Positions 2,245-43,241 of a stretch of DNA of 64,000 bases are shown piece by piece. The stretch's first letter is position 1; each line of letters opens with the position of its first letter. The DNA lies in the IMG/VR virus record IMGVR_UViG_3300020120_000082, positions 32,001 through 96,000 of that record; one strand, 5' to 3'. The notes beneath the pieces were generated by a model. The model ran no database searches. It was not told the DNA's origin and saw only the letters and a list, made by a program, of their open reading frames with translations. Source of the DNA: a virus (Duplodnaviria > Caudoviricetes). The translations under genes were made by a program, and so were the position numbers.

Positions 2245-4505
2245 CCACGCCGCTTTCAGCCCAGATCACCATTGCGTCGACCGATTACTCGGCGCACTTG
2301 ACGTCCCTGGTGCGTGAAGCCAGCCTGGAGAAAGCGGGCGCTACGGTCACCATGACGATGAAGTCATCATTTCCGTTTGCATCCATCAACCCCTGGGACA
2401 ACCTGGTTGTTTACGAGAACGGGGTAAAGACGCTTACTGGATATGTGACGCATATCATTCCCAGACGGGCTCCGGCTGAAGTCGAAGTTCAGGGAATGGA
2501 CACGTTCAAGCGTTGTCAGGATTGGTTTATCAGCGACAACTTGTACACAGGCGGGCCTGATGCTCAGCTAACGACCGACAAAACAACTCACAATGTTGGG
2601 TATTACGTCGGCTATCTGTGCAATCTGTGCGGCATATCCTACTCGATTAGCGATACCAGCGGCTCACTGATAAAACTGGCGGCTGATATTCCACTGGGTT
2701 TGCGCTCCGTGTCAGACGCGCTGGTTACGCTGTCGGCTGTCGGACAGTGGAATATTAGAGTGGATCCGAACGGCGTCTTGCGATTCGATCATATCAATGG
2801 GCCGACCGTGGCCGATTACACCCTTTCCTCGGTGACGCATTTTGAAGAAGAGTATAACGATACCGACACCCGCAATCAGGTGAAGATCTGGGGGCTTCAG
2901 GACTTCAGCCCATTGACCAGCGGCTCTGCTTTCTCGGGCGGCGGTCAAATTCTATGGTCTGAAAGCCGAGCCGTTACTGGGGTATCACACACCCGAACTA
3001 TGGTGGTGGCCGAACCGCATATCGATACGCTTCTAAAAGCGCAGCAATTGGCCAAAGCGGTATTGGATCAATGGGCGAGACTTGAGCATCTATTGTCCAC
3101 CGAGTCGGTTGGAAACCCCAACATTCGGGTTGGCCAGTCTGCCCAGCTTTTTCATAGAAGTCTGACTTCAGGGAGCTACTTTGATGTTGTGACGGATCTG
3201 CGCACAACCATCAATGCAGGTGGATATAAGCAGGACATCACTGAAGGGCGTAGGGCTTACCGATATCCGTACTGGCCAATGCCGACCACTCCGCCAGAAG
3301 AGTGGGGCAATGGAACGCTGCTGGGTGCTGCTTACGATTGCGCGGTTTATGGAGATTCGATCTATTCGGCTGGACTTGTGTTTCTGAACAATGACATCTA
3401 CCGGCGTCAATGCTGGCACATCGAAAGAAGACTGCTGACAGATGGAACTCTGGTATGGCAGAAGACGATCGACCATGTGACGCTGAATCCGCTTGTCAAT
3501 GGTGGCAACGTTTTCGCGCATATCAACGGCATTGAGATAGCCAACGGAATTATCTTCGCCACCGGAGTCATTTACTTCGACGAGCTAAACGCCAGGGCCA
3601 AATGGCAAGTTGAAGCATACGACACGGCTTCCGGGAACACGCTCTGGACGGACACAATTCTGTATGGCCCCAGTAATGGCTCTATGGAGACAACCGGATA
3701 CGATGTCGTGGCAACGGCAACCCAGGTCTTCGTTTTGGGAACCTATCCATACGAAATACCCAACCCAACCATGGGCGGAACGCTGATCATCGACATTGCC
3801 GCGCCAACGTTCAGGGTTTACGCGGCGGCTACAACAAAGACCGTATTGATAAGCCAAAATCAGCCGGTTAGAACTGCCGCGGCATTTGATGGAACAATAT
3901 TCACCACGCCTTATAGCAACTTCAGGCAGATTTGCCTGGATGCAGATGGCGGTCTCGTAACCAGCGGGGCATATAAATACTATTACCAGAAAACCATTGT
4001 CCCGGTTTACTGGCCACCAATCATTGCATATTACAACTACACCATCCGGCCATGGTTCGGACATTTTTCGAGTTCATTGGCCATCACCTGGGAAACGCTC
4101 TGGCCATACTCTTTGTCTGATCTGAATTTTGGTATCGACTACGCGGTTGGTGTAGACCAAAACGAAGTCAGGCAATACCGGCTTGGATCTGACAGTGCAA
4201 ATGGCACTGATCCTGGCGGACTTGGAAAATACAACCAGGTCAGCAATCTATGGCAGACAAACATTGGGTTCGGGGACCAGCACGGACACGTTGAGATTGG
4301 CAATTACGTCTATATCGCTCAAAACAGACTTGGTGCCAACAATCTCCGGTGGCATAACACCAGCGACGGATCGCTTATTGGAACTAGAGACGAGTCTGGA
4401 TTAACCACGCATGGGATCAAGCTGATTCAGGCCACCTCCCAGGTGGGATTGTGCGGTCAGAAGAACTGGATATTCTGGACTGTAATCTGGAACCAGCCAT
4501 CATAG
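2241..4505 (+). CDS. Second hub-like tail protein with C-terminal beta-propeller-like receptor-binding region
   Basis: N-terminal ~340 aa parallels the preceding hub (VDPNGVLRF, RNQVKIWG, VGNPNIRVGQ); C-terminus has PQQ-like W-containing repeats (DGTLVWQ, SGNTLWT). Confidence 0.55.
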   Translation: MTTPLSAQITIASTDYSAHLTSLVREASLEKAGATVTMTMKSSFPFASINPWDNLVVYENGVKTLTGYVTHIIPRRAPAEVEVQGMDTFKRCQDWFISDNLYTGGPDAQLTTDKTTHNVGYYVGYLCNLCGISYSISDTSGSLIKLAADIPLGLRSVSDALVTLSAVGQWNIRVDPNGVLRFDHINGPTVADYTLSSVTHFEEEYNDTDTRNQVKIWGLQDFSPLTSGSAFSGGGQILWSESRAVTGVSHTRTMVVAEPHIDTLLKAQQLAKAVLDQWARLEHLLSTESVGNPNIRVGQSAQLFHRSLTSGSYFDVVTDLRTTINAGGYKQDITEGRRAYRYPYWPMPTTPPEEWGNGTLLGAAYDCAVYGDSIYSAGLVFLNNDIYRRQCWHIERRLLTDGTLVWQKTIDHVTLNPLVNGGNVFAHINGIEIANGIIFATGVIYFDELNARAKWQVEAYDTASGNTLWTDTILYGPSNGSMETTGYDVVATATQVFVLGTYPYEIPNPTMGGTLIIDIAAPTFRVYAAATTKTVLISQNQPVRTAAAFDGTIFTTPYSNFRQICLDADGGLVTSGAYKYYYQKTIVPVYWPPIIAYYNYTIRPWFGHFSSSLAITWETLWPYSLSDLNFGIDYAVGVDQNEVRQYRLGSDSANGTDPGGLGKYNQVSNLWQTNIGFGDQHGHVEIGNYVYIAQNRLGANNLRWHNTSDGSLIGTRDESGLTTHGIKLIQATSQVGLCGQKNWIFWTVIWNQPS

Positions 4506-40908: not shown

Positions 40909-41159
40909 TCGAAGAACCCCATAGTCAGGCGGAATGCCAGATCGTCATACAGATCTACCAATAGCTGGCGTTCGCTTTTCGTAAGCTTCCTAAATGTTAT
41001 CCCCTTCTTTGCCTTCTCGTCATTGATCGCTTGCTCAACTAGCGGCACATACTCCAGGATGTCATAGAGAATTCTGGCAGTTTCAACAGGGACGTTCATA
41101 GTAAGAGATTGCTTCTTTTTTATGGACATCGTGTGTATTTTCCTGTTTGTATCTTTCAA
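40905..41159 (-). CDS. Hypothetical protein
   Basis: Tiling ORF. Confidence 0.55.
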   Translation of the reverse strand: MKDTNRKIHTMSIKKKQSLTMNVPVETARILYDILEYVPLVEQAINDEKAKKGITFRKLTKSERQLLVDLYDDLAFRLTMGFFE

Positions 41160-41595
41160 TATATTCTAATCTCCAGGATCCTTGTTCTTTGAATGTTTTT
41201 AGTCTATGGCACTTAACGCATCGTATCTCACATTTTTCCATTTCCTTAATGAACCTATCAATCGGACACCCATGTTGTATTGCTCTAGATATATTGAATT
41301 TCTTATCTTTGATGTGGTCAAAATCCAGAAAGACTATGTCACTTTCTCCACAATCTAAACATGGATGAGAAACAAGGTGGTTGAATGCTATTTCCCTTAG
41401 CCTTTTAACTAGATTGGCGTGCGAGGTTGCTACATTCGATCTGTAATCTGGGTGATCTTCATAAAACTTTTTTGACCTGGCTTGCATACATTTACAGCAA
41501 TTAGATTGATGCCCGTCGGATCTATTTTTGTCCTTGTAAAATTTAGATATATCTTTTGTTTCTCCGCAGTGACCACATCTCTTTTTCATGGGCAC
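41083..41595 (-). CDS. HNH endonuclease with N-terminal Zn finger
   Basis: KRCGHCGETK..SKF, PCLDCGE....LDFDH...EMEKCEIRCVKCHR.KT. Confidence 0.85.
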   Translation of the reverse strand: MPMKKRCGHCGETKDISKFYKDKNRSDGHQSNCCKCMQARSKKFYEDHPDYRSNVATSHANLVKRLREIAFNHLVSHPCLDCGESDIVFLDFDHIKDKKFNISRAIQHGCPIDRFIKEMEKCEIRCVKCHRLKTFKEQGSWRLEYIERYKQENTHDVHKKEAISYYERPC

Positions 41596-41600
41596 CCCTT

Positions 41601-41636
41601 AAAAATGCAGGGAGGCACTACCCTGTGCCTCCCTGC
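41601..41636 (-). terminator. Intrinsic terminator closing the protein+RNA cassette
   Basis: GCAGGGAGGCAC-agggta-GTGCCTCCCTGC followed by ATTTTT on the minus strand. Confidence 0.85.
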
Positions 41637-41940
41637 GGTATGCAGATTTCAAGTCTGCGTTGTATTGGCCTATTAGCTCAACAAGCTGGTTTTGACGTGA
41701 TTTGGGGCAATGTTTTATCACTAAACTACAGGGTCATGCGTTTTACTTCACCACCAGAGACCCCGCGAGGATTTAAACCTCGGATCTTTGCCCGCTGACA
41801 AAAGTCAACTTGTTTTTACCCAGGCCCTGAACTTGTTGGAGCAATAAGCTGAGTGTCAGCAACGTCCCGATTTGGGACCGTTGCTATTGTGACCTGACAC
41901 TGACACTGACGCTGACGCTGACAACAAGACTGCTCCCAAA
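41637..41940 (-). ncRNA. Novel structured RNA with permuted tRNA-like (YrlA-topology) module, hexamer repeats and anticodon-like hairpin
   Basis: T-arm 41766-41782, acceptor strands 41759-41765/41729-41735, D-arm 41712-41726, anticodon-position stem 41788-41793/41705-41710 extended by a long helix. Confidence 0.75.
41894..41923 (-). repeat. Five tandem hexamers YGTCAG
   Basis: Plus strand reads CTGACA CTGACA CTGACG CTGACG CTGACA. Confidence 0.95.
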
Positions 41941-41941
41941 G

Positions 41942-42691
41942 TTATTCGCCGTCGATATACTTGAAGATCTTTTCGGACAGCTTCAAATCGACAGCCTGGA
42001 TATCGTTACCGCGCTGGCGAGCCTGCTTGACTGCCGCCAGCAATTCATTCAACCGCTCCATGCGATCCGCCTTGTCCTTCGGAGACAGCATGCCGGAAGT
42101 CTTGACGGTCGTCCAGATTCCATCGCGCACATCCACATCGATCAGATTGACCTGGGCTGGATGCCGATCAGTGGCATCGGCCAGGACAATGCGCTCCTTC
42201 ACCTTCTTCGTGCGATAGGTGATCGACGGCGCAGTCTTGAAAATGTCGTTATCCGCATCCTTGGTCCATTCGTCCGTGATGCTGTTGGTGGGAATGGCTG
42301 CGTACACGCTGCGCAGATCTTCCAGGCGGCTCTCCAGATTCAGCAGCGCCGTCACGGTCATGCCCTGGAAAAGCACCGTCCCGCCATTCAGGATGACGTC
42401 AGCAGATGCACCCGGCAGGGAATTGGACGTTTCCTTGGACAAAACCAGGTCCAGGTAGCGGCCATATTCCTTCTGGAGTGTCCCCAGAACGTCCTTCACC
42501 TCGGCGCTGAGCGGCTTGACTTCAGCCGGAAACTTATCGCCCTTCTCTTCGTCCAGAGTCTGATAGGTCTTGACCTGGCCGACAAACAGCGCCTCGCCGG
42601 TTTCGAAAAGCTTCTTGGTTTCAGCCAGGACTTTCTTGCCCCTGATCTTCAGATCGTCTTCAACTGCCAGCAGTTCGTGGATCTTGCCCAT
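41942..42691 (-). CDS. Uncharacterised ~250-aa helical protein (resembles a widespread family I recall as DUF7873; unverified)
   Basis: K.HELLAVE, G.VKTY, ADVILNG, LLNLE..L, T.RTKKV, AT..HPAQV, SG.L, L..AVK.ARQ..N; AGGAG RBS. Confidence 0.8.
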   Translation of the reverse strand: MGKIHELLAVEDDLKIRGKKVLAETKKLFETGEALFVGQVKTYQTLDEEKGDKFPAEVKPLSAEVKDVLGTLQKEYGRYLDLVLSKETSNSLPGASADVILNGGTVLFQGMTVTALLNLESRLEDLRSVYAAIPTNSITDEWTKDADNDIFKTAPSITYRTKKVKERIVLADATDRHPAQVNLIDVDVRDGIWTTVKTSGMLSPKDKADRMERLNELLAAVKQARQRGNDIQAVDLKLSEKIFKYIDGE

Positions 42692-42734
42692 GTGCGCCTG
42701 ATCTCCTGATTTCCCGTTCGCTATGTTGGTCGTA

Positions 42735-42764
42735 ATATTACACCCGGAATGCTTTATCTGTCAA
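42735..42764 (-). promoter_or_regulatory. Sigma70-type promoter of the protein+RNA cassette
   Basis: TTGACA-N18-TAATAT. Confidence 0.65.
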
Positions 42765-42767
42765 CCG

Positions 42768-43241
42768 CTATTTGGGATGGTTGCGCCGATAATATTTCCT
42801 GGCATTTTGGATGGCACATTGTTTGCAAGTCCTGGCATATCCATCCCGGATCACATTCGAATGCCCAAATTCAAACAGGGATTTATTCTCGTGACAACGG
42901 TTGCAGTGCCGCAAGCCTAGTTTGATCAAGTCTGCGTTTCGATTGGGACGATGAGCGCCCAGATTATGAGACAGTGACGCAATTGAGTTTATGCTGTATC
43001 CAGTCTGATCGGCTATCTTGTCAATGCCGACTCCGTCTGAATAAAGACGAGCTACGACTTTCCTGATCGGCAATTTCCTGGCCACATTCAGTGCCCTGCT
43101 ATTGCCGATGCGAAGTCGAACCGCTTCCCCGGTAATGCCATAAATATCTGCGATTTGTTTGTTATTCTTGCCCTGGCGGCGAAGTTCAAGCATCTCTTCA
43201 TCACGCTGCAAGTAATAATCTCTATCTGGTCTCATTACCAC
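42768..43241 (-). CDS. Double-HTH plus Zn-finger protein
   Basis: KQIADIYGITGEAVR, KIADQTGYS, CNRC...CKQC. Confidence 0.65.
   Translation of the reverse strand: MVMRPDRDYYLQRDEEMLELRRQGKNNKQIADIYGITGEAVRLRIGNSRALNVARKLPIRKVVARLYSDGVGIDKIADQTGYSINSIASLSHNLGAHRPNRNADLIKLGLRHCNRCHENKSLFEFGHSNVIRDGYARTCKQCAIQNARKYYRRNHPK

Follow-up and report, generated by a model that had tools for sequence, protein, structure and literature searches.

To our knowledge, Y RNAs with a domain resembling transfer RNA (tRNA) have so far been known only as partners of Ro60. The tRNA-like structures at the 3' ends of the RNAs of plant viruses such as turnip yellow mosaic virus (TYMV), which are discussed in 10.1101/312249, keep the normal order of a tRNA, end in a free CCA, carry a mimic of the anticodon arm and are aminoacylated. 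Among bacterial Y RNAs, YrlA (RF02553) has a permuted tRNA-like domain, and its Ro60/Rsr partner in phages and bacteria has been described (Chen et al. 2014, PMC4201824; Wang et al. 2018, bioRxiv 10.1101/312249). Permutation is also a feature of the two-piece transfer-messenger RNA (tmRNA) of alpha- and beta-proteobacteria and cyanobacteria (RF01849-RF01851). Here we describe a permuted tRNA-like RNA encoded on the minus strand of a 64,000-nucleotide stretch of phage DNA (positions 32,001 to 96,000 of the IMG/VR record IMGVR_UViG_3300020120_000082; hereafter the window, whose numbering and minus strand apply to all window coordinates below). The RNA lies 3' of a gene for a protein of the family DUF7873. 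Judged by its sequence, it is one member of a large, so far uncatalogued group of DUF7873-associated tRNA mimics, for which we found no published name and no Rfam family. We establish its anatomy, the conservation and covariation of its fold and its linkage to DUF7873, and we found no Ro60 gene beside it. Since the gene-RNA pair recurs in many phages and bacteria that lack Ro60, it is probably the mark of an RNA-protein system not yet described.

The tRNA-like domain occupies 41704-41794, as placed by a strict descriptor and by a covariance model. Read 5' to 3', it consists of the anticodon-stem 3' strand (41792-41788), the variable region (41787-41783), the T arm (41782-41766), the acceptor 3' strand (41765-41759), a 23-nt loop (41758-41736), the acceptor 5' strand (41735-41729), the bases UA, the D arm (41726-41712) and the anticodon-stem 5' strand (41710-41706). 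The letters from 41792 to 41706, GGCAA-AGAUC-CGAGG-UUUAAAU-CCUCG-CGGGGUC-[23 nt]-GACCCUG-UA-GUUU-AGUGAUA-AAAC-A-UUGCC, are exactly those in which an earlier sequence-only reading of this DNA had recognized a permuted tRNA body with a T arm, a loop-closed acceptor stem (here of 7 bp) and a D arm. The strict descriptor, which specifies these elements in this order with two bases before the D arm and one after it, has a single site on both strands of the window (41792-41706). The covariance model R1, built from 19 elements of other phages with the window excluded, gave a sole match in a search to E 10, which covers the full length of the model at 41704-41794 with 37.9 bits (E 4e-8), a score at the low end of the family (range, 42-84 bits). 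Folding energies agree with the proposed architecture: the 346-nt region folds at -126 kcal/mol versus -98.7 for shuffled sequences (z -5.5), and the flanks of the domain pair together at -31.4 kcal/mol versus -18.2 for shuffles (z -3.4). This flank pairing indicates a long helix in the position of the anticodon loop, with its 5' strand at 41795-41826 (placed by flank duplex energy) and its 3' strand at 41667-41705 (placed by folding as well), so that the anticodon stem runs on into it, as had been proposed. The helix varies between relatives, reading GGCCU/AGGCC in the window and GGUCU/GGACC in locus L089.

The succession of T arm, acceptor and D arm is that of YrlA (PMC4201824; bioRxiv 10.1101/312249), and this part of the sequence-only reading stands. 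Both RNAs have the loop-closed acceptor stem, an anticodon stem prolonged by a helix that holds the RNA ends, and an elbow in which T-loop position 3 pairs with a purine of the D loop, and both occur in phages and near tRNA genes. The window RNA is, in contrast, about three times longer than YrlA, carries a GUYAGY track, a UUAUUGCUCC junction and a conserved terminal hairpin, and is tied to DUF7873 with no Ro60 gene. The core falls in the same structural class as that of YrlA; what sets the window RNA apart is its flanks and its partner. Like the plant-virus structures, it is a tRNA-shaped fold 3' of a viral coding region, but its acceptor is closed and it has no mimic of the anticodon. Standard annotation passes over it: ARAGORN reports neither a tRNA nor a tmRNA gene in the window, and no Rfam family matches at its gathering threshold, including the models for YrlA, tRNA (RF00005) and tmRNA, whose comparison had been proposed as a check. 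Lowering the Rfam search to E 10 on 451 nt yields one match, to the tRNA-like mascRNA (18.8 bits), and a literature search on permuted tRNA in phages found nothing relevant.

The fold is under selection. In a model-based alignment of 76 distinct sequences, 96% of the alignment cells are paired and all 21 pairs have changed on both sides, whereas sliding the 3' partner by one to three columns as a control drops the pairing to 37-49%. (When RNAalifold was run on nine full-length RNAs aligned with MAFFT, the T arm was misaligned and one spurious helix appeared, and the model-based alignment was used instead.) Selection extends to the tertiary elbow. In the crystal structure of YrlA, the third base of the T loop pairs with a guanine of the D loop and builds the elbow (10.1101/312249). 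Here, 71 sequences have U55-C56 in the T loop together with GG in the D loop, whereas the three sequences with U56 (the window, L018 and L023) all have GA in the D loop, that is, A19 replacing G19; the closest relative, L089, which lies outside the alignment, has undergone the same U56/A19 change. This covariation of 19 with 56 indicates that the L-shape itself is preserved and not the cloverleaf alone, and the alignment identifies the unusual T loop of the window (U56) as compensated by A19 in its D loop. A possible second tertiary covariation at the elbow is seen at 55/18 in L016:1563-1636 and L017:2332-2405, where G55 replaces U55 and A18 replaces G18 (UGCGAUU with AGUAGCA).

Linkage to DUF7873 in phages is nearly complete. 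Searching with the window protein (tblastn) reached 75 cultured phage records at 27-37% identity, among them phages of, or named after, Gordonia, Rhizobium, Arthrobacter, Rhodococcus, Vibrio, Pseudanabaena and Microcoleus, jumbo phages of Klebsiella/Serratia and Ralstonia phage phiRSL1. The locus set comprised 14 examined cultured-phage records and 71 further viral contigs, the latter found by an alignment-based scan, a single-protein query having given no loci. An R1 element starts within 1,100 nt downstream of the DUF7873 gene in 83 of these 85 phage or viral loci, so the homologs do keep the permuted fold downstream, a point on which the sequence-only reading had staked its case. Likewise, the strict descriptor gave 48 matches in 68 kb of same-strand downstream sequence and only 2 in 577 kb elsewhere, and those 2 are also downstream of the gene. 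The window domain itself starts 147 nt past the DUF7873 stop on the same strand. Its six closest relatives, from metagenomes (50-57% identity), gave five R1 matches in the joint search, and the sixth (L089) matched with the filters off. In all 14 examined records, 350-700 nt after the gene hold no annotated gene, or short hypothetical open reading frames (ORFs) or a doubtful tRNA call, and in most of them the DUF7873 gene lies in or beside the phage tRNA cluster. The element is unannotated throughout, except in Klebsiella phage vB_KpM_FBKp24 (L013, MW394391.1), where a suppressor tRNA is called over it: the annotated tRNA-Sup-TTA at 3018-3097 overlaps the second permuted domain (model match 3059-3155), and the mimic itself probably gave rise to this erroneous call. 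Among the cultured phages, only the locus of Microcoleus phage My-WqHQDG (L012, OR578707.1) has no model match. There, a HEARO/IS605-type RNA (L012:2854-3063; Rfam RF02033, 129 bits) and a 425-aa ORF come right after the DUF7873 gene and a lone T-arm remnant stands about 90 nt past its stop, which may reflect the insertion of a mobile element into the tRNA-mimic RNA.

Compared with its family, the window copy looks derived. Many relatives are two-headed, with a pair of permuted tRNA-like domains (for example, those in phages of Gordonia, Arthrobacter, Rhodococcus and Klebsiella), whereas the window and its clade have one head only, with a plain hairpin where the first would be (41858-41885, placed by folding and alignment); this 28-nt hairpin differs in length and sequence among close relatives. 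In addition, NCCA directly follows the acceptor 3' strand in 33 of 44 strict elements of relatives, whereas the window has UCUG there and thus no encoded CCA. Near relatives of the window read UCUG, UCCA or UCAG at this position, which suggests that the CCA is decaying in this clade. We therefore regard the window copy, on comparative grounds, as a single-headed variant in which the first head was replaced by a hairpin, the CCA was lost and the hexamer track became unusually long.

Three parts of the RNA are conserved beyond the tRNA mimic, namely a hexamer periodicity, the UUAUUGCUCC junction motif and the loop of the terminal hairpin. Within the clade of the window, the order from 5' to 3' is GGGAGCAG, helix P1, the GUCAGY track, the variable hairpin, AGCUUAUUGCUCCAACAAGUUCA, the long helix with the tRNA-like domain, a small hairpin and the terminal hairpin with loop CAGGGUAG. 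The first of these, GGGAGCAG, stands right after the stop codon (41930-41937) and is invariant in alignment A6 among the seven closest relatives that have it. It is complementary to UUGCUCC of a later motif, but both strands are invariant and hence show no covariation, and this pairing together with P1 would form a pseudoknot with too short a third loop. P1 pairs CUUGUUG (41928-41922) with CAACAAG 85 nt farther (41838-41832) and has compensatory changes in L090, L088 and L016; its 5' strand overlaps by one base a track of five GUCAGY hexamers (41922-41893), the two together spanning 41893-41928. Across 72 non-redundant leaders, YAG recurs at a spacing of 6 nt (z 12 at lag 6, 9 at lag 12 and 5 at lag 18). 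The periodicity is not a coding signal, because there is none at lag 3. The hexamers share the consensus G-U-Y-A-G-Y, and of the 72 leaders that of the window has the longest in-phase run, six. A small ORF through the hexamers (UUG UUG UCA GCG..., 23 aa in the window) was considered and rejected as not conserved, because its frame stops at the third codon in L090.

The 3' strand of P1 falls within the conserved motif UCAGCUUAUUGCUCCAACAAGUUCAG (41827-41852), most of whose columns are invariant in A6. In the clade of the window, the nearly invariant AGCUUAUUGCUCCAACAAGUUCA precedes the long helix, and a related UUAUCGCUC motif occurs in the loci of Gordonia, Arthrobacter and Rhodococcus phages; the leader motif of UUAUYGCUC type is present in the window. 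Past the tRNA-like domain, folding predicts a small hairpin (GCAGA-CUUGAAA-UCUGC, 41642-41658), which close relatives also have at this position with a sequence that is not conserved. The RNA ends in a hairpin and intrinsic terminator (41601-41636), with a 12-bp stem containing 9 G-C pairs (41636-41607), the loop CAGGGUAG and then AUUUUU. In L090, L087, L091 and L016, the stem covaries and the loop AGGGUA is kept. Moreover, hairpins with an AGGRWA loop are about 12-fold enriched downstream of DUF7873 genes, where they occur at 22 of 78 loci.

The protein encoded ahead of this RNA (249 aa, 41942-42691) is a member of DUF7873 (PF25283), as had been proposed for checking: the Pfam match is full length (profile positions 1-241 of 244) with E 1.2e-69 and 235 bits against a cut-off of 27. 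The only other Pfam match, below threshold in a search to E 1, is RENR_N, and no TROVE domain (PF05731) was found in the protein in that search. PHROGs, NCBIfam and PADLOC assign it to no family. It had been described as an uncharacterised helical protein. The AlphaFold2 model, which has a predicted local distance difference test score (pLDDT) of 91 and a predicted template modelling score (pTM) of 0.81, does contain four long helices, but also a beta sheet with a long hairpin, and the fold is thus not purely helical. Foldseek found no match of note to this model in PDB or BFVD, a wide fold search returned only helical-bundle matches with Z up to 7.3, the Atlas search returned the DUF7873 cluster itself and nothing else, and a profile search against PDB sequences returned nothing. 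Several weak Foldseek rows pointed to Cas7, a tempting likeness given the 6-nt periodicity, but it was dropped because no Cas7 chain reached Z 2 on re-check. The family holds about 2,500 clusters at 50% identity; the best 150 are all stand-alone proteins near 245 aa, except for a few truncated forms. We found no paper that mentions DUF7873.

Structure prediction supports a homodimer of the DUF7873 protein. The interaction prediction score from aligned errors (ipSAE) is 0.45 for the predicted pair versus 0.00 for the best control; 20 of 30 solved homo-pairs attain this mark, as does 1 of 23 single chains. Contacts agree by at least 92% between the runs, with a partner pLDDT of at least 68, and the predicted interface is symmetric, formed by residues 107-108, 119-130 and 209-217 and by the C-terminal helix 238-248.

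Bacterial genomes allow the gene and the RNA to be considered apart. Among 121 Cytophagales genomes, a strong R1 match is present in 19 of 22 with DUF7873 and in 11 of 99 without it (Fisher 9e-12, shared ancestry uncorrected). The association is seen both in genomes lacking TROVE (5 of 7 with DUF7873 versus 8 of 83 without) and in those having it (14 of 15 versus 3 of 16). Because the presence of the RNA goes with DUF7873 across these genomes, the distribution argues that it is an independent, trans-acting molecule that tracks the protein and not merely the tail of its message. In the complete chromosome of Bernardetia sp. OM2101 (L159), in which no TROVE gene was found, three tandem units of about 530 nt each lie on the minus strand at about 2,738,600-2,739,750, 134 kb from the sole DUF7873 gene. 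Each has a YAG-periodic leader, the UUGCUC motif, a permuted tRNA-like domain, a real tRNA in standard order and a terminal hairpin.

We lean slightly towards the reading that the RNA and a DUF7873 dimer form a Ro60-independent particle that presents a tRNA shape. The RNA would work as an independent molecule together with the dimer and without Ro60; the protein would sit on the conserved parts outside the tRNA mimic, that is, the hexamer track, the UUAUUGCUCC junction and the terminal hairpin, while the exposed tRNA-shaped domain would engage a factor that recognizes the tRNA elbow or acceptor arm, perhaps in a contest over tRNAs during infection. A role in tRNA metabolism or in tRNA-directed conflict fits the tRNA clusters of the relatives and a genome with no RNA-repair enzymes. 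Of the roles that the sequence-only reading had offered as examples, namely a tRNA decoy, a scaffold or a translation modulator, that of a scaffold for phage RNA-repair enzymes finds no support in this phage, in which RtcB, RNA ligase and CCA-adding enzyme were searched for and not found. More tentatively, the pair could be a new class of ribonucleoprotein parallel to Ro60-Y RNA, in which the dimer reads the GUYAGY hexamers and the junction and displays one or two L-shaped mimics; on that doubtful extension, the mimics would capture or sense a factor that binds the elbow or acceptor arm, and their role in the phage would be a conflict over host and phage tRNAs.

Several observations weigh against the particle. 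No recognizable RNA-binding fold was found in the DUF7873 protein by the fold searches and the PDB profile search. The pairing is also looser in bacteria: at 57 bacterial DUF7873 loci, mostly of Bacteroidota, an R1 element is adjacent in 27 and none is adjacent in the other 30, and several Cytophagales DUF7873 genes run straight into a plain terminator. A gene-RNA cassette is thus not a rule, and the self-contained cassette of the sequence-only reading, while accurate for the window, where one promoter and one terminator enclose both, does not extend to the family. In addition, the co-occurrence test ignores phylogeny, and tandem tRNA genes can give false R1 matches. R1 also matches genuine YrlA arrays next to TROVE genes, with 35-47 bits, so the core of the window RNA cannot by itself separate it from YrlA. 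Moreover, DUF7873 and TROVE themselves co-occur in Cytophagales (15 of 22 versus 16 of 99; Fisher 3e-6, phylogeny uncorrected), which leaves room for a link to Ro60 in cells, and the viral record is estimated to be only 88% complete.

As the main rival, the RNA could be a 3' element that acts in cis on the DUF7873 transcript. It would serve as a processing signal (an RNase P site) and as a stable 3' cap that shields the message or sets it apart from co-transcribed tRNAs, with the protein physically unrelated to it; we consider this unlikely but credible. It draws first on the layout of the window. A promoter-like site of sigma-70 type, TTGACA-N18-TAATAT (42735-42764; 10 of 12 consensus matches), comes immediately after the stop of the upstream ORF, and AGGAG (42707-42703) stands 11 nt ahead of the ATG at 42691 as a ribosome-binding site of the DUF7873 gene. 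The non-coding stretch of about 340 nt 3' of the gene has no credible ORF, and no promoter-like or terminator-like site of weight was found between gene and RNA, so that one transcription unit is the simplest reading; the promoter, AGGAG, the 249-aa ORF and the terminator all lie where the sequence-only reading had placed them. The family also lies within phage tRNA clusters, and at some loci real tRNAs separate the mimic from the terminal hairpin. In the viral contigs L019, L029, L037 and L059 a tRNA-like stretch in normal order stands 60-150 nt after the domain and before the terminal hairpin, that of L037 being, as read by eye, a complete tRNA-Arg(UCU); in some phages, tRNAs thus appear to be co-transcribed with the mimic. 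The acceptor stem points the same way. YrlA stems are mostly described as poor RNase P substrates, whereas the stem is 7 bp in the window and in the relatives aligned to the model (99% of cells paired) and is usually followed by NCCA in the relatives (33 of 44 strict elements). RNase P cuts the YrlA of Mycobacterium smegmatis, whose stem likewise has 7 bp, and CCA is added to it in vivo (PMC4201824), so that cleavage by RNase P is plausible for the CCA-bearing relatives.

Against the cis element, however, stands the free-standing occurrence of the same RNA as tandem units far from the gene in Bernardetia. The window, moreover, has no nearby tRNA and no CCA, yet it has kept the fold and compensated the elbow pair. 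Finally, the hexamer track, the junction motif and the terminal loop are conserved although a processing signal does not need them.

Next comes an ordinary Y RNA of YrlA type, with Ro60 supplied by the host or by the missing part of the phage genome and DUF7873 as a bystander or accessory, which we find improbable. The permuted topology is that of YrlA, and relatives of the window RNA score 32-43 bits with the Rfam YrlA model, whose gathering threshold is 69. The matches of R1 to true YrlA arrays, the co-occurrence of DUF7873 with TROVE in Cytophagales and the incompleteness of the record count in its favour as well. The window RNA, on the other hand, has no match to Rfam YrlA in 451 nt even to E 10. 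The Ro60-binding motif GNCGAAN0-1G, which YrlA carries on the 5' strand of its terminal helix (PMC4201824), is absent from 41600-41944, and it occurs in 23 of 73 family loci, about the chance rate. A search for PF05731 (TROVE) in the 138.8-kb viral record to which the window belongs found none, while positive controls were detected; the window had been noted to lack a TROVE gene, and the rest of the record (88% complete), checked as had been suggested, proved to lack one too. None was found in five complete cultured phage genomes either, nor in the complete Bernardetia chromosome, which has both DUF7873 and the RNA. Furthermore, strong R1 matches in Cytophagales follow DUF7873 and not TROVE, in genomes with and without TROVE alike. 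With no Rfam match, no Ro60 motif and no TROVE gene in the record, the window RNA is, as far as its sequence can tell, not a plain YrlA. In the Cytophagales cases inspected, the DUF7873 and TROVE genes are not adjacent. A separate run of about a dozen permuted tRNA-like matches in 5.4 kb (G002:C27:1108869-1114228) directly adjoins a TROVE gene (1107129-1107854) and has the look of a tandem YrlA-type Y RNA array of unusual length.

That the element is a permuted adaptor gene, whose product would work as a two-piece tRNA or a tmRNA-like molecule after cleavage in the acceptor loop, addition of a CCA end and charging with an amino acid, has very little to recommend it for the window. The likeness to two-piece tmRNA is real: in both, the T arm and the acceptor 3' strand precede the acceptor 5' strand and a long helix stands in for the anticodon arm, and the permuted beta-tmRNA model partly matches relatives of the window RNA at the acceptor junction. 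The 7-bp acceptor stem and the NCCA of most strict elements would also suit an adaptor. In contrast to two-piece tmRNA, however, the window RNA has no tag reading frame, no series of pseudoknots, no G3:U70 and no CCA, and it has a full D arm; its pair 3:70 is C:G and UCUG follows its acceptor stem. It also has no anticodon loop, ARAGORN finds nothing in the window, and the sole frame open through the hexamers is stopped at the third codon in L090. Gordonia phage Phendrix carries a one-piece tmRNA (L001:72-600; Rfam, 89 bits) in the same tRNA cluster as its DUF7873 cassette, so the mimic is not the tmRNA of that phage. That the domain is a decayed, functionless relic, with tRNA halves juxtaposed by chance through recombination in a tRNA cluster, is scarcely credible: adjacent tRNA genes can mimic the layout and give weak R1 matches (such mimicry is also described in PMC4201824), but there is no tRNA gene near the window RNA, compensatory change has preserved all four stems as well as the 19:56 tertiary pair, and 83 of 85 loci keep the element in its place after the gene.

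The surroundings of the cassette are those of a phage, with window genes that include HNH endonucleases, a helicase and a methyltransferase, and a comparison of ten neighbouring genes with Pfam yielded nothing bearing on RNA. The cassette is framed by two ORFs of HNH endonuclease type, one downstream (41083-41595), which matches phrog_2255 at 2e-28, and one upstream (42768-43241), with a helix-turn-helix at its N terminus and an HNH-like C terminus. Homing endonucleases may have moved or framed the cassette of DUF7873 and RNA.

In summary, selection maintains an inside-out tRNA shape, down to a compensated elbow pair, in an RNA that is tied to a protein family other than Ro60 in phages without Ro60. 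The finding has a consequence for annotation, since the element has been overlooked in phage records or, in FBKp24, called a suppressor tRNA. The system is also of tractable size, with a 249-aa protein and a 340-nt RNA, and is present in cultured phages of Gordonia, Rhizobium, Klebsiella and Vibrio. If the RNA and the DUF7873 dimer do form a particle, the pair would provide a second and independent setting for learning the function of a tRNA mimic that lacks an anticodon.

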